From the NCBI GenBank assembly GCA_965203905.1, contig CBDBDQ010000005.1, positions 4,224,001 to 4,288,000 on the forward strand: a stretch of DNA of 64,000 nucleotides, in the 5' to 3' direction. Both the position numbers and the translations under genes were made by a program. Of the stretch, positions 4,469 to 29,859 are shown in pieces; position 1 is the first letter of the stretch, and every line of letters starts with the position of its first letter. This DNA is from Spirochaetia bacterium. Its GTDB lineage: Bacteria; Spirochaetota; Spirochaetia; SZUA-6; Bin103. The notes under the pieces were generated by a model. That model did not search any database and had not been told where the DNA came from. It saw nothing but the letters and a program-made list of their open reading frames with translations.

Positions 4469-4541
4469 GGGCGGTTAGCTCAGTTGGTAGAGCACTTGGT
4501 TTACACCCAAGTGGTCGGCGGTTCGAGCCCGTCACCGCCCA
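4469..4541 (+). tRNA. tRNA-Val (anticodon TAC), CCA not encoded
   Basis: Cloverleaf: gggcggt/accgccc acceptor, tagctcagttggtagagc D-arm, cttgg-tttacac-ccaag anticodon arm, ggttcgagcc T-arm. Confidence 0.97.
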
Positions 4542-8441: not shown

Positions 8442-9164
8442 ATGAGCGTATCGATCATGGAGGCGCGGCGCAGCGGCCGCGGACCCGCCATCTGGCTGGC
8501 CGGCGATCCCGCCGACCTGGGGAAGTGGCTGGAGCGCGGCGCCGTGGGCATCGTCACGAACACGGTGGTGCTGAACGAGATGGTGCAGAAGTACGGCCAG
8601 CTCCTGGACGTGGTGCGCCGCTACCTGGACATCACCGACAAGCCGGTGGTGGTTGAGGTGGAAGGCCATTCCACCCAGGAGCTGCTCGACGTCAGCCACG
8701 TGTTCACCGCCCTGTCGCCGCAGGTGGTGATCAAGATCCCGTGTACCGTGGCCGGCCTCGGCGCTTTCCGCGCCCTGGAGCAGGAGGGGGTGACCACGTT
8801 CTGCACCACGGTGTTCTCGCTGGCGCAGGCGGCGGCGGTGGCACAGGCCGGCGCCAGCCACGTGCTGCCGTTCTGCGAGCCGGTGCGGCAGATGGGCGGC
8901 GACCCCGGCAAGCTGGTACGCGAGTGCGTCGCCATGTTCGCCGGCTGGGAACAGCGGCCCTACGTCACTGCCGCCCTGGTGCGTACGGTGGAGACGGCGT
9001 ACGCGGCACTGCGCAACGGCGCCGACGGCATCATCGTGTTCTGGCCGATCTTCCGCGACATGATGGAACATCCGCTCACCGACACCTGGAACCAGACCTT
9101 CGCCGGCGAGTGGCAGCAGATGCAGGACGCCGGCCTGCTGCAGGGCGTGGTGTCACAGGGGTGA
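8442..9164 (+). CDS. Divergent transaldolase / fructose-6-phosphate aldolase family protein
   Basis: GIVTNT, VVIKIP, CTTVFSLAQA..AQAGA; C-terminal part of ORF 8046..9164; GGAGG RBS. Confidence 0.8.
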   Translation: MSVSIMEARRSGRGPAIWLAGDPADLGKWLERGAVGIVTNTVVLNEMVQKYGQLLDVVRRYLDITDKPVVVEVEGHSTQELLDVSHVFTALSPQVVIKIPCTVAGLGAFRALEQEGVTTFCTTVFSLAQAAAVAQAGASHVLPFCEPVRQMGGDPGKLVRECVAMFAGWEQRPYVTAALVRTVETAYAALRNGADGIIVFWPIFRDMMEHPLTDTWNQTFAGEWQQMQDAGLLQGVVSQG

Positions 9165-10702
9165 ACGCGACGCCGCCGGCGGCGCTCCCATCCGAGGGCC
9201 GGCCGACCACGCCCGGCCGGCCCAACATCCTGCTGCTGATGACCGACGAGCACGGCGCGCAGTTCAGCGGCACCTACGGCCATCCCTTTGTCCGCACCCC
9301 GGCGATGGACCGGCTGGCGGCGGAGGGGGTGACCTTCGACGCCGCCTACTGCAACAACCCGCTGTGCGTGCCGTCGCGCCTCTCCTTCATGACCGGCCGC
9401 CACACCCACCACTGCGCCGGCTGGGACAACGCCACCCCGCTGGCGCCCGACGCGGTGACTTGGCCGCACCTGCTGCGCGCCCAGGGCTACGACGTGGCGC
9501 TGTCGGGCAAGATGCACCTGATCGGCGACGACCACCTGCACGGCTTCCAGGAGCAGTTGGCGCGCGACCTGCACAGCGAGCTGGAGCACCCGATCTTCCC
9601 GTGGGAGCGGGGGATACCGGAGGCGCGGGAGCCCTGGCCCGGGGTGGTGCGCACCGAGTCCCGGGTACCGCCGGGCCCGGACGGCGAAGAGGTGGAGACC
9701 GCGGCCGAGGAGGCGGCCACCCCGCCCACCGGGCCGGGACGCACCCCGGAGATCGATGCCGACGACGCGGCGGTGGAAGCGGCGCTGGCGTTTCTGCGGC
9801 AGCGGGCGCACGGGAGCGCCGAGCGCCCCTTCGCGCTCTGCGTGGGCCTCATCGCCCCCCACTTCCCATTCGTGGTGCCGGAACCATTCTTCTCGCAGTA
9901 CTTCCCGCGCCACGCCGACCTGCCGCGCCTGCCCGAGGGGCATCTGGAGGCGCTGCCGCCGGCGGCGCAGCGGCTGAGGCGGGCGTTCGGCTTTGGTGGC
10001 CACACGGAGCCACAAGTGCGCCGCGCCCGCGCCGCCTACTACGGGCTGGTCAGCTACGCCGACGACAAGCTGCGCCAGCTCCTGGAGGCGCTCGACCAGC
10101 TCGGCCTGGCCGACGACACCCTGGTGATCCACACCAGCGACCACGGCGAGATGCTCGGCGAGCACGGCCTGTGGCGCAAGATGAGCTTCTACGAGCAGTC
10201 GGCGCGCGTGCCGCTGCAGGTGCGCTGGCCCGGCCGTGCCGCGGCGGGCCGCCGCGTGCGCGAGTGCGTCTCCCTGGTGGACGTGACCGCCACCATCGTG
10301 GCGGCGGCCGGCGCGGCGTCCGCGGCAGCGCCCATGGACGGCCACAACCTGGCGAAGCTGCTGGCCGGTGCCGATCCGGAGTGGCGCGACGAGGCCTTCG
10401 CCGAGCACACCGCCCACGGCACCGACCGCCCGCGGGCGATGCTGCGCCAGGGCAACTGGAAGCTGTGCCTGTCCGGCGGCGGCGACCTGGAGCCGGAGCT
10501 GTACGACCTGGAGGCGGACCCGCGCGAGCTGGTCAACCGCGGCGGCGACCCGGCCGTCGTCGCGGTGGAGGAGCGACTGCGCGCTGCGTTGCTGGCACGT
10601 TGGGACTGGCGCCGCATCGACCGGGAGGTGCGCGCCAGCCAGCAGCGCCGGCAACTGATCCGCACGGTCGCTGCAACAGGTCGGCCGCGCCGCGCTCCGT
10701 AG
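9161..10702 (+). CDS. Formylglycine-dependent sulfatase (choline-sulfatase-like)
   Basis: PNILLLMTDEH, CVPSR (CxPxR), GKMH, SDHGEMLGEHG and ELYDL motifs; GTG start overlaps the upstream stop. Confidence 0.9.
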   Translation: MNATPPAALPSEGRPTTPGRPNILLLMTDEHGAQFSGTYGHPFVRTPAMDRLAAEGVTFDAAYCNNPLCVPSRLSFMTGRHTHHCAGWDNATPLAPDAVTWPHLLRAQGYDVALSGKMHLIGDDHLHGFQEQLARDLHSELEHPIFPWERGIPEAREPWPGVVRTESRVPPGPDGEEVETAAEEAATPPTGPGRTPEIDADDAAVEAALAFLRQRAHGSAERPFALCVGLIAPHFPFVVPEPFFSQYFPRHADLPRLPEGHLEALPPAAQRLRRAFGFGGHTEPQVRRARAAYYGLVSYADDKLRQLLEALDQLGLADDTLVIHTSDHGEMLGEHGLWRKMSFYEQSARVPLQVRWPGRAAAGRRVRECVSLVDVTATIVAAAGAASAAAPMDGHNLAKLLAGADPEWRDEAFAEHTAHGTDRPRAMLRQGNWKLCLSGGGDLEPELYDLEADPRELVNRGGDPAVVAVEERLRAALLARWDWRRIDREVRASQQRRQLIRTVAATGRPRRAP

Positions 10703-10885: not shown

Positions 10886-10990
10886 ATGAAGCGCCGCGAC
10901 GACAGCCAGCGCCGTGACCGGTTTCATACTGATCGCGCAGGCGGATTCCGTCTTACCTTTGTCATCTGGCAGGGCACCCCATGGCCCTGA
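10886..10990 (+). CDS. Putative leader peptide A, MKRRDDSQRRDRFHTDRAGGFRLTFVIWQGTPWP (34 aa)
   Basis: Manual translation; N-terminus homologous to the uORFs at 19156 and 25347. Confidence 0.5.
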   Translation: MKRRDDSQRRDRFHTDRAGGFRLTFVIWQGTPWP

Positions 10991-11160
10991 AAACGAGCCG
11001 CAAGAGGATACTCAAAGAACCCATACGAGCGCGGCGTGCGCCCGTCGAGTCACGCGCCGCGCGATTCAATTCGGAACTTGCCGCCTCTGTTAGACCGCCG
11101 GCGTTACGGGCACGAGAGTAGGCGGGGAACGGCAATTCACCATGCTATACTCTCAAGAAT
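10946..11160 (+). ncRNA. Candidate structured cis-regulatory RNA, copy A
   Basis: Homologous to 25797-26010; stems with compensatory changes. Confidence 0.45.
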
Positions 11161-11182: not shown

Positions 11183-13123
11183 ATGACAAGAGTGTCGATT
11201 CTCATTTTGTGCATTGCCCTGCCAGGCTCTCTGCTGTGGGCAGCAGCCGCGACCGAAGAAGAGCAGGGATCCCAGACCGCAGCCGCGGTTCCCACTGGCA
11301 GATACCTGGAGTCTCCGCTGCTGACTGCGCGAGTAAGCTCTGGAGAACTGCCTCCGGTGGAAGAGCGACTTCCGGATCAACCGGTGGTGTTCGACGCTTC
11401 CTGGAACGACGTTCCGACCGAAGACCTGGACTTTCAGGTAGGCAGGTACGGCGGAACCCTGAGAGCGGTTCGTACCCACCCCAACTGGGATGCCGACGTG
11501 TGGGCGATGTTGAAAGAGACCCTGGTAGCGTCCCCCGGTTGGATGGATGCAAATCCCAAGGACCTGCGGGGCAACGTCATCCTGGACTACGAGATTTCCG
11601 CGGATGGAACGACCTTCACCTTCACCATGCGGGAAGGGCTGAAATGGTCGGACGGTGTTCCCGTTACCACGGAAGACGTGCGCTTCACCTACGAAGACGT
11701 GCACATGAACGATGAGCTGCAGGAATTCGGCTGGGACATCCTGCAACAGTGGATGAGGGCAAGGAATCAGCCGGACGGAGAACCGATGCTGGTGGAGGTC
11801 ATTGACGACTACACCTTCCAGGTGAGCTTTCCGGAGCCCTATCCCGGCTTCATCAATAGCCTGGCAGTGTTCTGGGGCACCTACCGCGACTTTCTGAAGC
11901 CGAAGCATCACCTGATGAATTTTCACCCCGAGTATACTTCCTCGGACAAGCTCAAGGAGGCGCTGGCCGAGGCAGGATTGGAAGACAATGAATGGTACAA
12001 GCTGTTTCTCCAGGAGGACCACAACACCTGGGAGAAGACCAACACCACCGCGGTCGATTTCCCGAGCCTCTGTCCCTGGATCATTTCCGAGGTGACCCCT
12101 ACCGTAACTCTGTGGGAACGGAATCCGTACTACTTCAAGGTCGACTCGGACGGGCAACAGCTCCCCTACATCGACCTGGTGAGGTCGGAGTACGTAACCG
12201 ACAGAGAGACCATAAACCTGAAAATCGTTGCCGGTGAGCTGGATATTGTCGAACGCGAGGCAGGTGGTCCGAATCTACCGTTATTCAAGGAGAACGAGGA
12301 GCGGGGCGGCTATAACGTGACCCTGCTGCAGCAACACTTCGCGCCGGTCGACATATACCTGAACATGACCCATGCGGACCCGGTGTGGCGAGGGCTCGCA
12401 CAGGACGTCCGGTTTCGCCAGGCGCTGAATATGGCGATCAACCGCCAGGACATCATCGACAAGGTGTTTTACGGGTTTGCGTCGCTGCCTGAGGTGGTGC
12501 CCAGCGCCTACGATCCGGCGCGAGCGAATGAGCTCCTGGATGAGATCGGATTGACCGCGCGGGATGGCGACGGCAACCGACTGGGACCGGACGGCGAGCC
12601 GCTCCTGATACCGATCGAGTGGGCGCCGGAGTCCCCGGACTTTCAGCCGGTGGTCGAGCTGCTGACCCGGGACTGGACGGAACTGGACCTCGACGTGACG
12701 CCGAAAGAGCTGCAGCAGGACTTGCTCCATGAGCGCGAGCGCTCGAACGAGATCAAGATCAGCCTGAACTGGGACGACCTGGAGAAGTGGTGGCTGTTCG
12801 CCACCATCTGGGGCTCGCCGAGATTCGCTACCCATTCGTGGCACCTGTGGTATACCAGCGGCGGCGAATCGGGGGAGCAGGGTCCCGACTGGGTGTACGA
12901 GTTCTTCGACCAGATCGCGGAGGTACGGTCGTCCTCCTATGAGGACGCGCAGCGGCTGGTGAAGGGCGCTCAGCAGATCATGTATGACAACATCCTCTAC
13001 ATTCCGACCGTGCAGAAACTGAGGAAGCCGCTATTGACTTCCGTCAAGCTGGGGAATGTACCTACCAGTGGCATGGTCCTGGTCGGCGTCAACAGCGGCG
13101 AGCAGCTCTTTTTCAGAGAGTAG
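11183..13123 (+). CDS. ABC transporter family-5 substrate-binding protein
   Basis: Signal peptide, GELPPVEERLP, LKWSDGVPVTTEDVRF, RNPYYFKVD..GQQLPYID. Confidence 0.92.
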   Translation: MTRVSILILCIALPGSLLWAAAATEEEQGSQTAAAVPTGRYLESPLLTARVSSGELPPVEERLPDQPVVFDASWNDVPTEDLDFQVGRYGGTLRAVRTHPNWDADVWAMLKETLVASPGWMDANPKDLRGNVILDYEISADGTTFTFTMREGLKWSDGVPVTTEDVRFTYEDVHMNDELQEFGWDILQQWMRARNQPDGEPMLVEVIDDYTFQVSFPEPYPGFINSLAVFWGTYRDFLKPKHHLMNFHPEYTSSDKLKEALAEAGLEDNEWYKLFLQEDHNTWEKTNTTAVDFPSLCPWIISEVTPTVTLWERNPYYFKVDSDGQQLPYIDLVRSEYVTDRETINLKIVAGELDIVEREAGGPNLPLFKENEERGGYNVTLLQQHFAPVDIYLNMTHADPVWRGLAQDVRFRQALNMAINRQDIIDKVFYGFASLPEVVPSAYDPARANELLDEIGLTARDGDGNRLGPDGEPLLIPIEWAPESPDFQPVVELLTRDWTELDLDVTPKELQQDLLHERERSNEIKISLNWDDLEKWWLFATIWGSPRFATHSWHLWYTSGGESGEQGPDWVYEFFDQIAEVRSSSYEDAQRLVKGAQQIMYDNILYIPTVQKLRKPLLTSVKLGNVPTSGMVLVGVNSGEQLFFRE

Positions 13124-15338: not shown

Positions 15339-16901
15339 GTGAGCACGTTGACGGCGAATGATGACAACGTTTCCGGACAGATCGAAAGAATGTCGAGCCT
15401 TGTTCCCCGGGCGCGCGAGCTGCGTGAGAGATACCAACGGGATCCGCACCGGCCGGCGTATCATTTCGTTGCCCCGGAAGGTATCTGCCACCCGTTCGAT
15501 CCGCAGGGCTGCATCTATTGGAAAGGGAGGTGCCACCTGTTCTACGCATACCAGGTGGAGGGCGTGGGCGTGTGGGGACACGCCTCCAGTGCCGACCTGG
15601 TGCACTGGATCCATCACCCGATCCCGTTGGGAGTGTCGCCCGGGGACCCGGAGGAACAGGTCTACGCCGGCGGCTCGCTGGTAAACAAGGATGGCGTGCC
15701 GACCATGATCTACCACGGGGTGAACGCCGGCACGTGCATTGCCACCAGTGAGGACGACGAATTGATCCATTGGACCAAGCATCCGGCAAATCCGGTGATC
15801 CCCAAGCCCAGGGAGGGTGATGATGGCTATGGCAAATACCATGTCTGGGACACCTGCGGCTGGCTCCACGAGGATACCTACTACTCCATTTGCGGGAACC
15901 ATCCGTTCGAGCTTCCCGAATCGGACGGCGACACAGCCTACCTGTTCCGCTCTCACGACCTGGTCAACTGGGAGTATGTCCATCCGTTTTATCAATCCGA
16001 CCGGCGCTGGACGGAGGCGAACGAAGACTGCTCCTGTCCCGATTTCTTTCCGATCGGGAACAAGCACATGCTCATGTTCATCAGCCATACCCACGGCACC
16101 CAGTACTACCTGGGCAGCTACGACGGGGAGAGATTCGTGCCCGAGCGCCATGCTCGGATGAGCTGGGCGGGCGGACCCCTGTTCGCGCAGGAGAGCCTGC
16201 TGGCTGGAGACGGCAGGCGCATCTTCTGGGCCTGGGTGTTCGAGTCCCGGTCGCGGAACGCGCAACTGTCCGCCGGCTGGGCGGGGGTGATGAGTCTTCC
16301 TCGGGTGCTGTCCCTCGGCCAGGATGGCACTTTGCTTATCGAACCTGCCGAGGAGCTGCAGATGCTCAGGCGGAACTACCGCCGGCAGGAAGGTGTCGGC
16401 CTTGCGGACGGGTCGGAAATGAGATTGAAGGGGATGGAAGGGGACTGCCTGGAGCTCGCTCTCGAGGTAGACGATCCCCGTGGGCAGCAGCTCGGGGTGA
16501 TGGTGCGTTGTTCTCCGGATTGCGAGGAGCACACCGTGATTCTGTTCGACGACGAGGCACGGACGCTGCAGGTGGACACCTCGCGCTCCAGCTTGAGCCC
16601 GGAAATCGTGCAACCGTGGCCTCAACACGGCACCTCCTTCTCGCCCAATCCGCTGGACGGGCGGGAAGATGTCCGGGTCCAGAAGGCGCCCTTCGAACTG
16701 GCGCCCGGTGAGCCGCTCAGACTGCGGATCTTCCTTGACCGCTCGATTCTGGAGGTGTTTGCCAACAGCCGGCAGTGCGTGACGCAGAGAATCTACCCGA
16801 CGCGAAGCGACAGCATGGGGGTAAGGCTGTTCAGCCGAAAGGGCCGCATCTCGGTGCGGTCCATCGAAGCCTGGGATATCACCGCGGCCAACCCCTGGTA
16901 A
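15339..16901 (+). CDS. Glycoside hydrolase family 32-like protein with non-canonical active-site motifs
   Basis: HRPAYHF..FDPQG, WGHASSADLVHW, SLPRVL, IFLDRSILEVFAN; CSCPD in place of WECPD. Confidence 0.85.
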   Translation: MSTLTANDDNVSGQIERMSSLVPRARELRERYQRDPHRPAYHFVAPEGICHPFDPQGCIYWKGRCHLFYAYQVEGVGVWGHASSADLVHWIHHPIPLGVSPGDPEEQVYAGGSLVNKDGVPTMIYHGVNAGTCIATSEDDELIHWTKHPANPVIPKPREGDDGYGKYHVWDTCGWLHEDTYYSICGNHPFELPESDGDTAYLFRSHDLVNWEYVHPFYQSDRRWTEANEDCSCPDFFPIGNKHMLMFISHTHGTQYYLGSYDGERFVPERHARMSWAGGPLFAQESLLAGDGRRIFWAWVFESRSRNAQLSAGWAGVMSLPRVLSLGQDGTLLIEPAEELQMLRRNYRRQEGVGLADGSEMRLKGMEGDCLELALEVDDPRGQQLGVMVRCSPDCEEHTVILFDDEARTLQVDTSRSSLSPEIVQPWPQHGTSFSPNPLDGREDVRVQKAPFELAPGEPLRLRIFLDRSILEVFANSRQCVTQRIYPTRSDSMGVRLFSRKGRISVRSIEAWDITAANPW

Positions 16902-16926
16902 CCGCGGCATCAAGAGATCAGTTCAA

Positions 16927-18441
16927 ATGGAATCACCTCGGTACTATGACCGGCCCGACATGGCGCCATGTTCGACGCTTCACTTCCGCCCGGAAGGGGC
17001 ATTGGTCGGGGATGCGTCGTTCTTTCGGCACGGCGATGAGTGTCACATCTTCTACCTGAGCAAGCGCAACGACGATCCGCCGCGCCTGCCGACGTGTCAG
17101 CTCGATCATGCGGTCAGCAAGGACCTCCTGCATTGGGAAAGATTGCCCACGGCTCTGTTTCCGGGAGAACCGGGGGAGCCTGATGACGATGGCATCGGCG
17201 GATGTTCCATCGTGTGTCGGGACGGCAGGTTTCACATGTTCTACGCTGGAACCAATCCCCAGGTGACCTACCATGCGGAGAGCCGTGACCTCATCGAGTG
17301 GCGGAAGGATGACCCGCTGAAGCCGGTCATCGTTCCCGATCCGCGCTGGTACATGGCGCACGACGCGGCGGTGCAGGATCCGTACAACGAGCGGGGTTGG
17401 CGGGATCCGTTTCTGTTTCATGACGACAAGCAAGGACGCTACGTGATGACGGTGACGGCCAGGCGCAACCAGGGACCATGGCGCGAGCGGGGCTGCGTTG
17501 CCTGGGTGGTCAGCAGCGACCTCGTCGACTGGCAGGTGCAGGCGCCTCTCTACGCTCCTTCGCTGGGAATGAACCTGGAGGTCACCGAGCTGTTCGAGAT
17601 GGATGGTCGCTACTTCCTGATTTTCTGTCATGGAGAGACCAATACGACCCGTTACCGGGTGGCGGATCGGTTGGAGGGTCCCTACCGGTGTCCGGCGGAT
17701 GACGTCCTGCTGCCGAACTACCTGTACGCGCCGCGGACGATTGAACGGCTTGGAAAGCGGTACCTGATCCCATGGGTGGCGGATCGCCTCAACGGCAGCG
17801 ACGACAATCGGTCGGAGTTCGGCGCCGAAGGAGTTACCTGGGGCGGCGCCTTGGGCACGCCCCAGGAAATGCGCTGCCTCGCGGACGGCAGACTTGCGCT
17901 GTTCTTCCCGGACATCGTGACAGGGCTGGCCGGCACGCAGACGCTGGGTGCAGGCAGCCTCGACCATCTGCGGACCGAGCGCGGCGAATGGAAGCGGCAG
18001 GGAGAGACGCTACTGGCGTCGTCCGATCAGGGAATGGCACGCGGACTGGTGGCCGTGCGCGGACACGACTTCCTGCTCTCGTGCCGTATCAGGATTGGCC
18101 GTGGCGTAGCCGCGGGATTGATCCTGCGCGCCAGTGAAGACGGCGCGGCCGGCTACTACTTGCGCCTGGAGCCTGCACTGAAGAACGTCTCCCTGTGGAG
18201 GTATCCGCGGCCGTGGTTCTGTGCCAGGCCAATGGCGTTCCGGGTAATCCCGGAGCTGGACCATGGGCAAACCATAGAGGTGAAGGTAATCCTGCACCGG
18301 CACGTGCTCGACGTATACCTGGATGACCGCCAGGTGTTGAGTCGCGCCGTGTACGACTACCGGGAAGGGCAGTTCGGATTGTTCGTCGAAGACGCGGCGG
18401 CAGAGTTCGGACCTCTCGCAGCGAACACCCTCAAGGAGTGA
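16927..18441 (+). CDS. Five-bladed beta-propeller glycoside hydrolase (GH32/clan J)
   Basis: VGDA, HAVSKDLLHWE, WRDPF and LEVTE motifs, plus a C-terminal beta-sandwich. Confidence 0.8.
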   Translation: MESPRYYDRPDMAPCSTLHFRPEGALVGDASFFRHGDECHIFYLSKRNDDPPRLPTCQLDHAVSKDLLHWERLPTALFPGEPGEPDDDGIGGCSIVCRDGRFHMFYAGTNPQVTYHAESRDLIEWRKDDPLKPVIVPDPRWYMAHDAAVQDPYNERGWRDPFLFHDDKQGRYVMTVTARRNQGPWRERGCVAWVVSSDLVDWQVQAPLYAPSLGMNLEVTELFEMDGRYFLIFCHGETNTTRYRVADRLEGPYRCPADDVLLPNYLYAPRTIERLGKRYLIPWVADRLNGSDDNRSEFGAEGVTWGGALGTPQEMRCLADGRLALFFPDIVTGLAGTQTLGAGSLDHLRTERGEWKRQGETLLASSDQGMARGLVAVRGHDFLLSCRIRIGRGVAAGLILRASEDGAAGYYLRLEPALKNVSLWRYPRPWFCARPMAFRVIPELDHGQTIEVKVILHRHVLDVYLDDRQVLSRAVYDYREGQFGLFVEDAAAEFGPLAANTLKE

Positions 18442-19559: not shown

Positions 19560-21098
19560 TTCGCCCCGGTAGTCGAGAAACTCGTCATCGGCGACTGGGC
19601 GATCGGCGGGAGCGAGCATAACTGGCGCAGCTATAACGTGCCGTTCTCGGTCATGCAAGGACAGTTGGCGGAGAGTTGGGAAACGCCGGACGCCACCACG
19701 ATCATCGTCAAGGTCCGCCCGGGCGTTTACTGGCACGACAAGCCACCGATGAACGGTCGGGAGCTGACCGCCAGCGATATCGAGTTCAACTATCATCGCC
19801 TCTTGGGGCTCGGCAGCGGTTTCAGCGAACCCACGCCGTTCAGTTGGACACTCCCTGCCGTCACATCCGTGACGGCCACCGACAAATCGACGGTAGTCTT
19901 CAAGCTGACGAGGCCAGACCTCTTTGGGGTGCGCAAGGCATTCGACACGTGGGATACGTGGATCTACCCTCCGGAGGTCATCCAGCAACACGGCGACATG
20001 AAGGATTGCAGGAATCTGGTGGGCACCGGGCCCATGGAGCTGACGGACCTGGTGGAAGGCAGCTCTTGGACGTGGACCCGGGTTCCCGACTACTGGGGGT
20101 TCGACGAGAAGTTCCCGGACAACCGCCTGCCCTACGTCGACGAGCTGAACGCCCTGGTCATGCCGGATGCGGCGGCGCGGATCGCGGCCCTGCGCTCGGG
20201 TCAACTCGATATGTTGGCGACTCTCGGCGACTCTCAAATGAGGTCACTCGACCAGGTGGAGAGCCTGCGCCGGACCGATCCCGACATCAGGATGTGGGAG
20301 ATCGCGTTTCGGTCCGACAACGCATTCTCCTTCGTAAACCAGCAGAATCCGCCTTTCGATGACATCCGGGTACGCCGCGCCATGCAGATGGCTCTGGACC
20401 TGGAGACGATTGCGAACACCTACTTCAAGGGTTTGGCCGATCCGACGCCACAGGGAATGATCCACAGCGACAATGCCGGAACTGGCACGCCGTTCGACGA
20501 GTGGCCGGAGGAGGTCAAGCAGTACTACCGCTACGATCCGGAACGGGCCAAGCAGCTTCTGGCCGAGGCGGGCTATCCCGATGGCTTCAAGACCCGGCTG
20601 GACTATGGGAACCGCTTCGATGCGAACTACGCAGAGCTCGTCATTGGCTACTGGGGTGAGATTGGCGTCGACGTCGAGCTGTCCGTTAAACCCGGGCCGG
20701 AGATGGTAGCCATCCAGCGGGGGCATACGACGGACGGAATGATGCACTTTTCCAGCGCTGCCACCTACGCCGATGCCGGCACGCTGAAGGCGGTTTTCAC
20801 CTCCGGCTCCACCAGCAACTTTGGCAACATCAACGACCCGGATTTCGACGCTCTGATCGAACGCGCAGAGGCAGCCACGACGCTGGAGGAACGGAATCGG
20901 CTCACCAAAGAGGCGAATCTGTACGCCATAGCCCAGCACTGGGAAGCCGTGGGTCCGACCAGCCCGCAGTTCAACGTCGCCCAGCCGTGGGTCAAAGGCT
21001 ATGACGGGGAGATATCGCTCGGCATGCAGGGCCAGTTCTTGACGCTGACGGCCCGCGTCTGGATCGATCAGGATCTGAAGCGGGAGATGGGATTCTGA
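19560..21098 (+). pseudogene. 5'-truncated family-5 substrate-binding protein (signal peptide and N-terminus deleted)
   Basis: Frame open from 19560 (FAPVVEKLVIGDW...GQLAESWE), aligning to about residue 90 of the paralog at 26029; in-frame TAA at 19557 directly after an orphan GGAGG. Confidence 0.75.
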
Positions 21099-25445: not shown

Positions 25446-25796
25446 CCGCTCCGGCTGATCGCCCCGTACGCAACCCCGCGCACGCCGTCGCCTTCACTAC
25501 CGCCGTAGCTGTCGGTGGCACCGGCTCCGTCCATCGCCGAACCGGCATGCGGGCCGCCCGCACCGTTATCGTCGACCGCGACCGTGCCGGATCCGCGCCC
25601 GCGACTGACTGCCGGCAAAACCCACCTCCGGCGTCGCCGGTCAATCAGACTCGCTGCTTCGCCGACCACCGCCGCGCGGGCGTTGTGACGCAGGTCCCGA
25701 CCTCCGGCGAGCGGTCGGCGTTTGCACGATCGGGCGCCCACCCGCTGCGCGCACCGCACCCCATCTTACGTCTATTGCCCACCCGAGACAGGCAGC

Positions 25797-26010
25797 TTCC
25801 GTCACGCATCTGGCAGGGCACCCTGTGCCCCAAGAGAGAGAGGTGCAAAATGATACTCAAAGAATCTCACGCGCGCGCGGCGTGAGCCCGGGTGAACCCG
25901 GCTGAGTCACACGCCGCGCGCTTCACAAATTGACTCAGACTGGCCGTCCGCGTTGCGGGCCCGAGAGTAGCCAGGGAGCGGCAGTCCGCTCCGCAATACT
26001 CCAAAAAACC
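25797..26010 (+). ncRNA. Candidate structured cis-regulatory RNA, copy B
   Basis: Homologous to 10946-11160; 12-bp stem 25873-25884/25910-25921. Confidence 0.45.
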
Positions 26011-26028
26011 TGATTTATGGAGAAAACC

Positions 26029-27858
26029 ATGAATGTTATCGTAAGCATCACCAGGAGCTTCGCAGTTGCGTTGGTCCTGGTGCTGGCCGCGACCGGCCTC
26101 TGGGCCGCTGGCGCTGAAGAGCAGCCGGCAGCCGCTGCCGACAAGAAGTATGTGACCGACCCCGCCACCGGCGAGGTGGTGGTGGCGCCACAGTACGGCG
26201 GGACATTGACCATCGCCCTGACGTCAACGCCCCCGGAAGTGGACAGCTGGTACGGGCATCCTTCGATGAGCGCCTACACTGGCGATGTAGAGAGGCTAGG
26301 CATCGCGAACTGGGGAATAGATAGGAGCGTGAATGATCTTAAAGGCACCTTCAGGTCTCCAGAAGTCCTCGTAGGGTTGCTGGCTGAAAGCTGGGATATT
26401 TCCCCGGACGGCCTCACCTATACCTTCCACATCCGCAAGGGCGTTCACTGGCATAATGAGGCGCCGGTGAACGGTCGGGAGCTAACTGCCTATGATATCG
26501 AATATAACTATCACCGCTATTTAGGTCTGGGCAGCGGCTTCACCGAAGGTAGCCCCTTTCTTGCCCAGTGGGAAGCACTTGACGATGTGGGAATCGAATC
26601 GATAACGGCCACCGACAACTATACGGTTGTTTTCAAGCTGGCGCGGCCACACCTCGATGCGCTGAAGGTTATCGTGATCACCAACCCTGCTGTTATCAAT
26701 GCTCCCGAGGTAATCAAGGAATATATAACTACTGAGGAGCCACACGGCCCTATTCCGGATTACAGGGCCCTGGTCGGCACCGGGCCCTTTATGCTGATTG
26801 ACTTGATCGAGGACACATCTATGACCTGGACCAAGAATCCTGACTACTGGCGCTACGACGAAAAGTACCCGGAGAACCGCTTGCCCTATGTCGACGAGAT
26901 AAGGGCCCTGGTTATACCAGAAGAAACAACACGTCTGGCGGCACTGCGCTCGGCTAAGATTGATCACATGGGTTGGATGTTTGGTAGTAATATTTCTATC
27001 GAGGTGGCAGAGGGCCTCAAGCGGACCAACCCGGAACTCCTGCTGCACGAGACTTCATTAGGTTCAATGAGTACTGCTTTTTTCAACACGCGCATTCCAC
27101 CCACTAACGACATCAGGGTGCGCCACGCAATGCAAATGGCACTGGACCTCGAGACCATTAACAATACCTACTTTAAGGGTGAAGCAAGTACGACACCTGA
27201 GGGGTGGTTAGGGAGAGGTTTGGTCGGGTATGTCACCGCATTTGAAGACTGGCCGGAAGACATCAAGCAATACTACAGGTATGACCCGGAAGGCGCAGAA
27301 GCGTTGCTTGATGAGGCTGGATATCCGCGCGGTGCCGACGGCATTAGATTCGGGACCGACTTGGAGGTCAGGTGGGATCCGGCGGGATTTTCATATGATT
27401 TGGGCTTTTTTGAAGTAGCCGCGCCATACTGGAAAGAGATTGGCATTGATGTAGAGGTGAAGCCGCTCGAAACGGCTGTTTGGGCCGCTCATATACGAGA
27501 AGCTACTTATGAAGGTCTCACCAGTCATAGCAACATGGAGTTCAGCCCTATCATTCCGCTAACACTACTTCTCTCGACCTCAACATGGAACATGCCCTTA
27601 ACACAGGACCCGGTTTATGACGCTATGGTTGAAGCCGTCCTCGACGCTACCACCCATGAGGAGCAGCAGAGGCTGGTTAGTGAGGCAAATATGTACATTA
27701 CAACAAACCACTGGCAGTTGTGGGGTCCTAGAGTACCTCAGTATAGAGTGAGCCAGCCGTGGCTCATCGGTTATAACGGTGAAGTGCCAGTGCAAGGTCT
27801 TAACATCCTCGCCCGCCTCTGGATTGACTCAGAGCTGAAGGCAGCAATGGGTCATTAG
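26029..27858 (+). CDS. ABC transporter family-5 substrate-binding protein
   Basis: Signal peptide (GLWAAG), PQYGGTL, LAESWD, GTGPF, NRLPYVD; alternative start 26017. Confidence 0.92.
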   Translation: MNVIVSITRSFAVALVLVLAATGLWAAGAEEQPAAAADKKYVTDPATGEVVVAPQYGGTLTIALTSTPPEVDSWYGHPSMSAYTGDVERLGIANWGIDRSVNDLKGTFRSPEVLVGLLAESWDISPDGLTYTFHIRKGVHWHNEAPVNGRELTAYDIEYNYHRYLGLGSGFTEGSPFLAQWEALDDVGIESITATDNYTVVFKLARPHLDALKVIVITNPAVINAPEVIKEYITTEEPHGPIPDYRALVGTGPFMLIDLIEDTSMTWTKNPDYWRYDEKYPENRLPYVDEIRALVIPEETTRLAALRSAKIDHMGWMFGSNISIEVAEGLKRTNPELLLHETSLGSMSTAFFNTRIPPTNDIRVRHAMQMALDLETINNTYFKGEASTTPEGWLGRGLVGYVTAFEDWPEDIKQYYRYDPEGAEALLDEAGYPRGADGIRFGTDLEVRWDPAGFSYDLGFFEVAAPYWKEIGIDVEVKPLETAVWAAHIREATYEGLTSHSNMEFSPIIPLTLLLSTSTWNMPLTQDPVYDAMVEAVLDATTHEEQQRLVSEANMYITTNHWQLWGPRVPQYRVSQPWLIGYNGEVPVQGLNILARLWIDSELKAAMGH

Positions 27859-27954: not shown

Positions 27955-28914
27955 GTGAAAGCCTATGTCATCAGGCGGTTATTGCTGATAATCCCCACCC
28001 TGTTTATATTGACCGTCCTGGTCTTTCTCTCGGTGCGCTTCATCCCGGGCGATGCAATAGACTTGATCTTTGCTGAGATGGGAGGCAGAAGTCAAAATAC
28101 GGACCGTGAAGCTCTTTTGCATATGCTGGGATTAGACGTTCCTGTCCACGTGCAGTATGGACGCTGGATAGGAGATATTTTTCTGCACGGCACCCTTGGC
28201 GAATCATTGTTTGGCGGCTATTATTCGATAGAGGAGAGGATATTACTTAGATTGCCGGTGACCATTGAGCTTGGCGTCTTGGCACTCGTAATCGGGCTAG
28301 CGATAGCGCTGCCAGTCGGCATCTACTCGGCAATTCGCCAGGATACTGCCGCCGACTACTTGGGGCGCTCCGTCGCCATCATGGGCCTGGCAACGCCTAA
28401 CTTCTGGCTGGGAATCATGGTCATGATCTACCCGGCAATCTGGTGGGGCTGGTCGCCACCGATGGAGTGGGTTCCTTTCACGGAAGACCTGCTGGGGAAT
28501 CTCGGGATTCTCATCATTCCCAGCCTGATTCTGGGGACGGCACTTTCCGCGGCCACCGTGCGGATAACGCGCACCATGATGCTGGAGGTGCTCAGGCAGG
28601 ACTATATCAGGACGGCCTGGTCAAAGGGTCTCAAGGAGAGGGTAGTTGTTATGAGACACGCCGTCAAGAATGCGCTCATCCCGATAGTCACCCTAATAGG
28701 TCTGCAGTTGCCGATCCTGGTCGGAGGCGCCGTGATCGTGGAGAGTATCTTCAACCTGCCCGGGATCGGTCGTCTCTTGGTGAATGCACTCCAAAGGAGA
28801 GACTACCCGGTGGTCTCCGGAGTAAACCTGTTCTTCGCCACCGGGGTCGTAGTGATCAATCTGATGATCGACCTTGTCTATACTTTCTTGGACCCCAGGG
28901 TCCGTTATAAATAG
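27955..28914 (+). CDS. ABC transporter permease (DppB-like)
   Basis: IPGD, QDYIRTAWSKGL, DPRV. Confidence 0.92.
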   Translation: MKAYVIRRLLLIIPTLFILTVLVFLSVRFIPGDAIDLIFAEMGGRSQNTDREALLHMLGLDVPVHVQYGRWIGDIFLHGTLGESLFGGYYSIEERILLRLPVTIELGVLALVIGLAIALPVGIYSAIRQDTAADYLGRSVAIMGLATPNFWLGIMVMIYPAIWWGWSPPMEWVPFTEDLLGNLGILIIPSLILGTALSAATVRITRTMMLEVLRQDYIRTAWSKGLKERVVVMRHAVKNALIPIVTLIGLQLPILVGGAVIVESIFNLPGIGRLLVNALQRRDYPVVSGVNLFFATGVVVINLMIDLVYTFLDPRVRYK

Positions 28915-29859
28915 ATGGAAATAACAGGTATGAGTGAGGCCACGGGGATAGCATCAGGAGTAAGGGAGCCAAAGAGACGTGCCGGTCTGGCTGATTTCTT
29001 TATCAGGCTGGTCAAGGAGAAGCCATTGGGTACTGCCAGTGGGATTATCATAATGCTCTTGATTCTTGTCGCTATCTTTGCTGATGTTGTGGCCCCTCAA
29101 TATAATGAACACCACCTCGAAGACATAATGAAGGGCCCGTCAGCCCGGTATCTCCTGGGCACCGACCACTATGGGCGAGACTTCTTGGGCCGCCTAATCC
29201 ACGGGGCTCGCATTTCGTTACTTGTCGGTCTGGCCGCGACCGCTCTCAATGTTGTGGTCGCTACCCTGATAGGCGGCACTTCCGGATTCCTTGGTGGTAA
29301 ATTGGACATCGCTGTGCAGAGATTTGTCGATGCCTGGATGGCTTTCCCGGGACTGCTCCTGTTGTTGACCATAATGTCCATAGTGGGGCGGGGCATACCA
29401 CAGATAATACTGGTCCTGGGAATATCAGGAGGGATCGGCGGCTCAAGATTGGTCAGAGGTGCCGTTATCGGCATTAAAGAGAGTGTTTATTTTCAGGCGG
29501 CGGAGGCGATTGGCTCCTCAAAATGGAGAACACTTATCCGACGCGTGCTGCCCAATATCATGCCTGTCATAATTATCATATTCAGCATAAGCATAGGGGG
29601 CGTGATCCTCTCTGTGGCTTCTCTGAGCTTCCTCGGATACGGTCTGCCGATCGACGTTCCTGACTGGGGAGGTATGCTTAGCCGGGAAGGGCGTAGGTAC
29701 ATGGAGTTGGCCCCAAGGCTGGCTCTCTTGCCTGGTCTTTGCCTGACTATTACCGTTTACTGTCTAAACATGTTCGGCGACGCGGTGCGGGACCTCGTTG
29801 ATCCAAGGCTAAGGGGTGCTGTCGGACGTTTCGGCGCTGACAGCGCCACGTCGCTTTAG
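28915..29859 (+). CDS. ABC transporter permease (DppC-like)
   Basis: LLGTDHYGRD, SLSFLGYG, WGGML, GDAVRDLVDP. Confidence 0.92.
   Translation: MEITGMSEATGIASGVREPKRRAGLADFFIRLVKEKPLGTASGIIIMLLILVAIFADVVAPQYNEHHLEDIMKGPSARYLLGTDHYGRDFLGRLIHGARISLLVGLAATALNVVVATLIGGTSGFLGGKLDIAVQRFVDAWMAFPGLLLLLTIMSIVGRGIPQIILVLGISGGIGGSRLVRGAVIGIKESVYFQAAEAIGSSKWRTLIRRVLPNIMPVIIIIFSISIGGVILSVASLSFLGYGLPIDVPDWGGMLSREGRRYMELAPRLALLPGLCLTITVYCLNMFGDAVRDLVDPRLRGAVGRFGADSATSL

Follow-up and report, generated by a model that had tools for sequence, protein, structure and literature searches.

A multicopy 5' leader with a short open reading frame, a GC-rich stem and a pseudoknot before family-5 binding-protein genes of sponge-associated spirochaetes

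Introduction

A stretch of 64,000 nucleotides from a Spirochaetia bacterium (assembly GCA_965203905.1, contig CBDBDQ010000005.1, positions 4,224,001 to 4,288,000 of the forward strand), at its whole length here called the window, contains two regions, A (10946-11160) and B (25797-26010), which carry the same series of short blocks in the same order. This had been pointed out by a first-pass annotation of the letters, and alignment bears it out with 79% column identity. What, then, is it that these two regions share? The annotation suggested a riboswitch or instead an attenuator-like switch. As described here, the A/B element is a 5' leader of approximately 190 bases, present in 34 copies, as counted with a covariance model (R1), in the 8-Mb, 66% G+C genome to which the window belongs (the 'own' genome, below). 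In one group of sponge-associated spirochaetes, dozens of genes for nutrient-binding proteins have this leader in front of them. It joins a short upstream open reading frame (ORF), which encodes MILKEP(H/Y)ARAA* and has its own Shine-Dalgarno (SD) sequence in front, to a GC-rich stem (P1) that this ORF enters and to a pseudoknotted domain. From these parts I infer switching, and put at about even chances that the element is a translation-coupled riboregulator, a leader of a subfamily of family-5 binding-protein mRNAs which acts in cis as its short peptide is translated.

Copies and their distribution

A profile built with nhmmer from A and B, then iterated and run on the own genome, returned 35 hits, with 32 of them scoring at 98.8 bits or more (E of 7e-28 or less). 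The remaining three hits (17-68 bits) are the second segment of a split hit plus two short fragments. Given these scores, chance is excluded as the source of the likeness of A and B. Model R1, which consists of 169 positions and 36 pairs and which was calibrated, was built from 45 of 118 copies, with copies having large insertions or deletions, near-duplicates and also A, which is atypical, kept out of its seed. Among ten sister genomes of the same genus, R1 counts 50, 71, 100, 42, 6, 2 and 1 copies in seven and no copies in the three others (81%, 95% and 95% complete). The highest of these counts, 100, is from a 4.9-Mb genome (G005), to be set against zero copies in two 95%-complete, single-contig genomes (G009 and G010), also of that genus. 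As copy number thus spans 0 to 100 within one genus, its spread points to a recent, lineage-specific expansion of leader-bearing binding-protein genes.

Outside of the genus, R1 gives only two marginal matches (E 0.004 and 0.009) over the 13 genomes of a sister genus. In a sample of the class (150 genomes, 87 genera) every match falls inside this one genus, and none was found in the 146 genomes that represent other families. A scan of public contigs for a 16-nt leader motif found, among the matches listed, most of them single chance ones, seven loci from two 'MAG: Spirochaetia bacterium' records that are full leaders (101-176 bits); five control loci from other public records showed no leader, except for one 18-bit fragment. 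At the gathering thresholds of Rfam 15 (4227 families) no family but tRNA is matched over the whole window, and nothing beyond weak, unrelated hits (12-17 bits) comes from the 500-nt regions around A and B when the limit is relaxed to an E of 10. The window's sole Rfam hit is a tRNA gene at 4469-4541.

The string 'MILKEP' has no occurrence in the open-access text searched, and searches of that text on sponge and spirochaete solute-binding proteins, or on a leader peptide or upstream ORF in combination with an ABC (ATP-binding cassette) transporter and a pseudoknot, gave nothing on such a leader. The peptide and fold of this leader, its confinement to one genus and its up to 100 copies before binding-protein genes have no description in Rfam or in that text. 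Leader-peptide control itself is of a known kind.

As to what the leader precedes, 29 of 32 own copies are followed, on the same strand, by an ORF of 574-660 codons which starts -56 to +81 nt from the end of the hit. Two others have shorter ORFs approximately 310 nt downstream and one copy is truncated. At all 41 of the loci fetched from the own and sister genomes, an ORF beginning 4-34 nt after the element matches a hidden Markov model (HMM) of these binding proteins, which are ABC solute-binding proteins of family 5, i.e., of the PF00496 type. The own genome holds an extreme number of such genes: of 203 candidates, at least 133 scored as PF00496 loci (examples in the window are at 11183-13123, 19638-21098 and 26029-27858), and an HMM made from the leader-linked paralogues picks out 182 own-genome ORFs of 400 codons or more. 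Because leader copies are few against either number, the leader is present at only about one-fifth of own family-5 binding-protein genes. Clustering of the 280-nt regions upstream of these 182 ORFs, the starts of which are rough estimates, revealed no second leader family, but instead one 40-member cluster, which is this leader, plus small clusters. Three of the latter (7, 6 and 4 members) were considered as other leaders and rejected, as what they share is upstream or adjacent coding sequence.

The leader open reading frame

The leader's most conserved block, GATACTCAAAGAA, is not an RNA box, nor is it a -10 element, but the start plus first codons of a translated leader peptide. The consensus order over aligned copies is GGAGG, then 7-8 nt, then NTG, and then AUA CUC AAA GAA CCG CAC GCG CGC GCG GCG UGA. 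In B, to give the features of one typical copy (all features here and below are on the + strand), the SD sequence is GAGAGG (25838-25843), found where the family consensus has GGAGG, and the ORF, MILKESHARAA*, runs over 11 codons plus UGA (25850-25885). Codons 2-3 of the latter are AUACUC (box 1, 25853-25858).

The block is carried by 117 of 118 copies, with NTG at the start position in 112 of these 117 (ATG in 93, GTG in 12, CTG in 4 and TTG in 3). The five others all have an in-frame ATG or GTG upstream: three that read GTA have an in-frame GTG two codons before it, and two that read AGG, i.e., A itself and an A-like copy from another genome (L279, which is probably orthologous to A), have an in-frame ATG or GTG nine codons before it. 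Among 106 unique sequences the start codon opens with A in 84, G in 15, C in 4 and T in 3, with its T kept in 104 and its G in 103. The SD sequence is similarly kept, with G at -10 in 93 and at -7 in 96 of 106 unique copies.

Codons 3-6 (Leu, Lys, Glu, Pro) vary as codons do, that is, by 0-0.03 at first, 0.02-0.03 at second and 0.07-0.25 at third positions, with 51 synonymous versus 16 non-synonymous variants. The Pro codon occurs as CCG, CCU, CCC and CCA. Codon 7, by contrast, is free (His, Tyr, Trp, Gln, Leu, Glu, Cys or Arg) and in 9 unique copies is UAG, giving MILKEP-stop. Codons 8-12 lack triplet periodicity as they form a stem arm, and for codon 2 as well as for the part after Pro a peptide-level constraint is not clear. 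Thus the leader contains a short, conserved, coding ORF with its own SD and start, as do leader-peptide cis-regulators in the broad sense, and amino-acid-level conservation of L, K, E and P at codons 3-6, which on sequence is the pattern of an arrest peptide. In a five-member subfamily (L054, L056, L057, L058 and L061) the leader peptide reads (M/L)ILKEPHHARGLSS.

The P1 stem and its competitor

Structure was read in two ways, with RNAalifold on 29 own copies and with my own pair table on an alignment (A3) of 116 copies, which leaves out two of the 118 as truncated or 3'-divergent. Both concern first of all P1, a 12-bp GC stem between leader-ORF codons 8-12 and CACGCCGCGCGC, in which 96.5% of the table's cells pair (115 distinct sequences). 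P1 begins at nucleotide 22 of the ORF and encloses a tip hairpin of variable length, with the sequence GAGUCA unpaired on its 3' side; the hairpin has a median minimum free energy (MFE) of -33.1 kcal/mol. P1 itself varies little across copies. In B, P1 pairs 25873-84 with 25910-21, i.e., spans 25873-25921 with codons 8-12 as its 5' arm, its tip hairpin is 25886-25902 and GAGUCA is 25904-09. The equivalent in A is a stem of 10 bp, 11029-38/11053-62 (within 11029-11062), with GAGUCA at 11047-52. Both the long stem and the GAGTCA in its loop are as the first-pass annotation had them, including the U-G pair of A (11037/11054) where B has U-A, and RNAalifold predicts the stem too. Three own-genome copies (L031, L036 and L039) have a conserved 22-nt insertion (ACUACGGGCCUGGUUCCCGCUC-like) that lengthens the P1 tip and, by inspection of coordinates, several sister-genome R1 hits are approximately 185-190 nt long, consistent with that insertion.

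As the ORF overlaps one arm of a conserved helix, ribosome and P1 would exclude each other. What might form should P1 be opened is suggested by the linker after P1, which carries UGACUC (25931-25936 in B). This is complementary to GAGUCA, and 91.7-97.4% of cells at these positions pair, whether as an alternative helix to P1 or as a pseudoknot with P1. With the stretch that a ribosome would cover masked, that is, the 5' arm of P1, UGAGUCA/UGACUCA becomes the MFE pairing in two of three folded copies, B and L195, these being folded copies with 8-nt arms. The 8-bp ctgagtca/tgactcag alternative that had been proposed for B accordingly exists, and is what those masked folds form. The folding model is a thermodynamic one, with pseudoknots outside of it. 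The five-member subfamily introduced above is without GAGUCA and UGACUC together, and has instead a local CAGAGA/UCUCUG hairpin in the linker.

The pseudoknot domain

Downstream of the linker lies a compact domain in which a stem, P2 (CUGGC/GCCAG), encloses both a hairpin, P3 (CGCCCGC-GUU-GCGGGCG), and the strand GAGAGUA. There follows a further hairpin, P4 (GGAGCGG/CCGCUCC), and then box 2, UACUCUC, which pairs with GAGAGUA across P4. Together with P2 this makes an H-type pseudoknot, as seen both with RNAalifold and in the pair table. In B, P2 is 25940-44/25970-74 (25940-25974) and holds within it P3 (25945-51/25955-61, loop GUU) and the single-stranded GAGAGUA (25963-69). P4 of B (25975-25992) has the loop CAGU, and B's box 2 is UACUCCA (25997-26003), which pairs with 25963-69 across P4.

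With all pairs of the leader taken together, 93.9% of 5293 cells pair. Changes on both sides are found at 17 pairs, as compared with 7.9 +/- 2.0 in shuffles (0 of 500 reach 17), and doubly changed cells number 54, as compared with no more than 29 in controls whose partners were shifted by 1-3 columns, statistics which count cells and not independent events. Best supported is P3, with both-side changes at four of seven pairs (10 cells in which C-G has become G-C and 5 in which it has become U-A) as well as many U-G wobbles. In P2, 95.1% of cells are paired and one of five pairs has a both-side change (U-A to C-G in two cells, L245/L248), with a further compensation, in L048, read from alignment A3. 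P4 is 88.3% paired, and 36 cells have G-U in place of G-C at its closing pair. Wobble pairs (U-G and G-U) are common generally, with 52, 33 and 36 cells at three pairs. An RNA copied from the opposite strand would have A-C mismatches in their place, which assigns the structure to the sense RNA. The domain, that is, is conserved, structured and covarying in the manner of a riboswitch aptamer.

The GAGAGUA/UACUCUC helix, which the first-pass annotation had listed only as an option, is instead the strongest tertiary feature, with both-side changes at two of its seven pairs: A-U becomes G-C at columns 277/321 in L043, L267 and L273, and a like change is found at columns 280/318 in the subfamily's five copies, in which the pair of strands reads GAGAGUG/CACUCUC. 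That is, pairing of GAGAGUA with the downstream UACUC(UC) is upheld by compensatory change at two pairs, whereas its suggested pairing with the upstream UACUC, possible over 5 bp, lacks covariation support. The U-to-C changes of L043, L267 and L273, three separate copies, also remove the T of the hexamer by which box 2 could be read as a -10 element. An invariant T, a -35 partner and freedom from pairing or frame constraint, all as expected of a sigma-70 -10 element, are not what these boxes display.

The domain is not equally intact everywhere. P3 occurs as a tandem duplicate, e.g., CCCGCCUUGGCGGG and then CCCGCGUUGCGGG, in the copies L038, L048, L049, L050 and L228, which come from the own genome and from genome G001. 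In L051 the 3' half of the domain is absent and the gene is kept.

The main start, selection on the leader and RNA

The start of the binding-protein gene is itself found in a local hairpin (26013-26034 in B), which has the main SD sequence (SD2; GGAG at 26019-22) at the 3' end of its 5' arm and reaching into the loop, and the AUG (26029-31) in its stem. In 68% of 90 unique copies this AUG has a paired probability above 0.5 (mean z -1.13), and one compensatory change is seen (CAUAC/GUAUG versus CAUAG/CUAUG). The hairpin is local indeed: both arms lie within approximately 25 nt of the AUG and masking of the leader ORF does not affect it. Nor was any direct pairing of P1 with the main ribosome-binding site found upon folding three copies. 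A pairing of the UGACUC linker with SD2, resembling the segment 3:4 pairing of erm leaders, was looked at as well and rejected, as by inspection it is of 3-5 bp and is lost where SD2 is GGAGAA, GGAAGA or GGACAA.

The leader is under stronger conservation than the genes it precedes. Over the 406 pairs formed by 29 own paralogues, median identity is 74% for the leader versus 58% for coding DNA, 49% for third codon positions and 46% for proteins, with the leader more conserved than coding DNA in 97.8% of pairs. Over the same pairs the median is 42% for the region that spans -140 to -25 nt relative to the start of the leader ORF. Given 42% upstream versus 74% within the leader, it seems that each gene keeps its own upstream region, with the leader common to all.

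That the leader is transcribed is indicated by four sponge metatranscriptome studies, in which hundreds of assembled contigs lie over 25838-26007 at 85-99% likeness; the RNA runs with related sequence are in fact sponge metatranscriptomes. Some contigs bridge from leader into coding sequence, e.g., 25903-26078, and one extends approximately 87 nt upstream of a paralogue's leader ORF. Contig cover is absent at, e.g., 25736-25769 and 26246-26279 of the 1-kb stretch compared with those runs. Simple scans of the A and B regions showed no sigma-70-like promoter and also no + strand terminator, the latter with a loop limit of 8 nt that would miss P1. A sigma-54 reading of CTGGCAGGGCACCC in A and B was rejected, its spacing to a GC dinucleotide not fitting the consensus.

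Copies A and B and their surroundings

Copy A is a divergent member of the family: the canonical start and UGACUC are missing, P3 is weakened and P4 is broken. At its canonical start is AGG (11005-07), followed by codons for ILKEP (11008-11022), and an in-frame ATG is found nine codons upstream (10981). A's long ORF (10981-11121; MALKTSRKR-ILKEP-...*, 46 codons) is thus the family ORF with an N-terminal extension and, just as had been noted at the outset, it ends inside of the element (TAG at 11119-21). L279 has an in-frame GTG at the place homologous to A's upstream start. The 3' domain of A (11095-11154) retains GAGAGUA (11114-20) pairing with UACUCUC (11148-54), and CCGCC/GGCGG (11095-99/11121-25) are complementary there. 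The first-pass annotation had compared that stem of A with CTGGC/GCCAG of B, which is indeed the family's P2, and counted two compensatory changes between them. Since A's stem is register-shifted, with UAGAC as A's homologous 5' strand, those changes are not at homologous columns and are not covariation.

The gene following A (11183-13123) encodes a family-5 solute-binding protein (PF00496, E 4.6e-51) and is followed in turn, as assigned by Pfam, by two permease genes and two GH32 genes. That following B (26029-27858; PF00496, E 4.4e-68) is followed by two permease genes (27955-28914 and 28915-29859; PF00528). Upstream of A is a sulfatase gene (8741-10702), with the two GH32 glycoside hydrolase genes after A's permeases found over 15339-18441. 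Given these sulfatase and GH32 neighbours, A's transporter probably belongs to a fructan or sugar utilisation locus rather than to a peptide one.

Just upstream of the leader SD sequence a small palindrome or hairpin is seen in B (25817-25831), in A (10973-10988) and in L279. It is GGGCAC-CCU-GUGCCC in B versus GGCCAC-CCU-GUGGCC in another genome's copy, a compensatory difference, and other subgroups have different small hairpins there (GCCGG-UUUU-CCGGC). A hairpin at this place does not reach significance when all copies are taken together (mean z -0.41, 106 windows). Possibly the palindrome marks where the mRNA begins. The TTCCGTC and CATCTGGCAGGGCACCC blocks, which had been counted among the element's parts, are shared by A and B, but are found in few copies only and lie outside of the core family. 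Two own-genome loci (contig C5, 7567638-7567701 and 5100478-5100541) match just this upstream A/B part, TTCCGTC...CATCTGGCAGGGCACCC (profile positions 2-65), with no full leader there. The block is a separate repeated element.

Discussion

How might these parts work together as a translation-coupled riboregulator? A ribosome on the leader ORF would have to melt P1. The helicase site of the ribosome lies approximately 11 nt downstream of the P-site codon. With Pro6 in the P site, the ribosome's leading edge would meet the P1 arm. Slow Glu-Pro chemistry (Glu-Pro-stop in 9 copies) plus the stem could then hold the ribosome and keep P1 open, and an opened P1 would free GAGUCA for UGACUC, next to P2. 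The resulting pairing may refold the pseudoknot domain and the downstream ribosome-binding site or alter how accessible they are, such that binding-protein synthesis, and perhaps mRNA survival, would follow ribosome movement through MILKEP. A possible signal is, for example, the supply of charged tRNA for rare A-rich codons or for proline. One shared leader would in this manner put 30-100 transporters, with their individual promoters, under a single post-transcriptional signal. As to precedent, Glu-Pro-stop is reported, with reference to Hayes 2002, to stall termination and to induce high ssrA tagging there (PMC7246954), and mgtQ is an 8-codon ORF whose translation frees a sequestered ribosome-binding site (PMC8092293).

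More specifically, and tentatively, MILKEP could be a new minimal sensor peptide, with the ribosome halting at Glu-Pro before P1 upon some cellular signal (charged tRNA or proline supply, or a small molecule in the exit tunnel) and thereby, via the pseudoknot domain, setting the translation of 30-100 solute-binding proteins in sponge-symbiont spirochaetes. I regard this as a rather unlikely extension of the riboregulator reading.

A number of observations weigh against translation-coupled switching. Over the GAGUCA/UGACUC helix changes are wobble-compatible only, with no compensatory change. In L042, the third of the folded copies, that helix did not form upon masking, and masking of the leader ORF in the three copies left the unpaired fractions of the main SD and AUG within 0.07. 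The subfamily's replacement of this helix with a local hairpin fits a constitutive structural helix as well as it fits a switch. For the ORF, third positions of AUA, CUC and AAA are kept more than synonymous freedom predicts, and for that reason part of the 'peptide' conservation is instead RNA-level constraint. The stop position is not fixed, with 9 early stops plus several frameshifted long forms. Each amino acid occurs only once in MILKEP, because of which only weak sensing of tRNA charging is expected. The copies, within as well as between genomes, are related to one another, so that variant counts are not counts of independent events. Lastly, the RNA evidence consists of assembled contigs only, which give no 5' end, strand or level and to which DNA could have carried over.

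Another reading is for the leader not to switch at all, but rather to stabilise the mRNA, to provide for a high and fixed translation of the binding protein relative to the permeases, or to serve as the docking site of a global RNA-binding protein. Such a constitutive or protein-bound leader, which I consider unlikely, accords with a very stable 5'-proximal structure (P1 at a median of -33 kcal/mol), with folds in which the ribosome-binding site does not change between states, and with conserved hairpin loops and a tolerated P3 duplication, as protein-binding sites could have. Summed contig depth over the leader in the metatranscriptomes is high as well, though depth cannot rank expression. 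A mere stabiliser, however, needs no amino-acid-level conservation of LKEP. Neither does it call for the keeping of mutually exclusive complementary boxes (two of GAGU type, three of ACUC type), and a main start codon that is in a hairpin in two-thirds of copies speaks of regulated rather than maximal initiation.

Alternatively the pseudoknot could be the sensor, that is, P2-P3-P4 as an aptamer for a molecule of global state (an alarmone, second messenger or ion), with ORF and P1 as its expression platform or as accessory. The compactness and covariation of the pseudoknot favour such a ligand riboswitch, as do its near-invariant unpaired nucleotides (the GUU loop of P3, GAGAGUA and a CGCAA joiner) and the strong purifying selection on the leader. 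A global signal would fit also with a common leader on transporters of presumably different substrates, and the mgtA leader does join a sensing RNA with a proline-containing leader ORF. Like pseudoknotted riboswitch aptamers generally, the domain is a covariation-supported H-type pseudoknot, in which a strand of an internal loop pairs with one on the 3' side, and it adjoins a ribosome-binding site. Unlike these it has no known ligand, no Rfam family and a range of one genus, and a translated ORF is integral to it. No match among 4227 Rfam families even at E up to 10, restriction to a single genus, which for metabolite aptamers is unusual, tolerance of tandem P3 duplicates and of the loss of the domain's 3' half in L051, which keeps its gene, plus a gene context that names no ligand, all make the riboswitch an unlikely answer. 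Of what the first-pass annotation concluded, a structured, sense-strand leader with covariation and competing pairings has held, with 'attenuator-like' close to what is now proposed and a ligand-binding aptamer the less probable reading.

Transcription attenuation of the pyrBI or trp kind, in which P1 would terminate transcription unless a ribosome close behind kept it from forming, is improbable. The leader ORF does overlap the 5' arm of a GC-rich hairpin, and the sequence after P1 is relatively A/U-rich for a 66% G+C genome (consensus UUCAnGAAUUU). Five or more T in the 8 bases after P1 are found in only 8 of 118 copies, though, and for most copies P1 as an intrinsic terminator was rejected. 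The simple scan for terminators in A and B, with its limit on loop length, was likewise negative, and RNA contigs run from leader into gene. The leader ORF furthermore has no tandem regulatory codons, as in MILKEPHARAA only Ala recurs and does so as stem-arm codons, such that both the tandem codons and the intrinsic terminator of classical amino-acid operon attenuators (trp, his, leu, thr, pheL) are missing.

A DNA-level element, with GATACT/TATACT as -10 hexamers and the inverted repeats as operators or a dispersed repeat, is very improbable indeed, for although AATACT resembles TATAAT at four of six positions, TGAGTCA...TGACTCA is an inverted DNA repeat and the element is multi-copy, its position and orientation relative to the gene are fixed, box 1 is explained by triplet periodicity, NTG start variation and an SD sequence, compensatory box 2 changes remove the otherwise invariant -10 T in L043, L267 and L273, the many G-U pairs turn into A-C mismatches when the complementary strand is read, scans of both regions scored no sigma-70-like promoter, and the untranscribed stems that go with such -10 boxes, the outcome that was to have undone the structured-RNA claim from the start, fail on codon periodicity, box 2 covariation and RNA contigs.

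Returning to the leader as a translation-coupled riboregulator, its nearest likenesses are with the mgtL/mgtA and mgtP/mgtCBR leaders of Salmonella. These too have a short, proline-containing leader ORF in a long, structured 5' leader of a transporter gene, with ribosome progress selecting among RNA pairings and with mgtA adding a structured sensing domain. They differ in that there is no similarity of sequence or structure (no Rfam hit), one proline here rather than several, and here an ORF which enters a 12-bp GC stem, a pseudoknotted fold, and 30-100 copies per genome before binding-protein genes. The mgtQ ORF before mgtB is likewise very short, its translation undoes a stem-loop and promotes the next transporter gene, and particular residues of the mini-peptide matter (Asp, Glu); mgtQ overlaps the stem that sequesters the next ribosome-binding site, whereas the present leader ORF ends approximately 130-160 nt before the main start (PMC8092293).

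In erm and cat translational attenuation a leader peptide of approximately 6-19 codons is involved and a stalled ribosome covers segment 1, upon which segments 2:3 pair. Inducers there are ribosome-targeting antibiotics, with segment 4 holding the SD and AUG of a resistance gene; here the genes are instead those of nutrient-binding proteins. A main SD/AUG that pairs with a segment released upon leader stalling, as in those systems, was not found here, the local hairpin being indifferent to masking. With TnaC, SpeFL, PepNL and C-terminal Glu-Pro-stop the leader has in common a conserved peptide with proline near to the predicted halt, and 9 copies do end in Glu-Pro-stop. The present peptides, by comparison with arrest peptides, are of 6-11 residues, which is too short to fill the exit tunnel, and they show no similarity to known arrest motifs.

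What may the leader mean for its bearers? Leader-peptide switches as normally known are single-copy and sit on operons for biosynthesis, resistance or ion transport. The leader described here has reached as many as 100 copies and is more conserved than the proteins it precedes. Over 300 copies, together with a calibrated model and the lack of any match, make it a clean new RNA family for Rfam, and it offers three parts that can be tested separately: a conserved peptide of 6 residues, a stem of -33 kcal/mol in the ribosome's path and a pseudoknot. Should MILKEP be a sensor as tentatively suggested, then this would be a genome-wide leader-peptide regulon with no described counterpart. Should the leader be a switch, then a very short peptide would be added to those sequences that talk to the ribosome, and an uncultured symbiont with approximately 130-180 family-5 binding proteins would be putting a large share of its uptake under one post-transcriptional signal.

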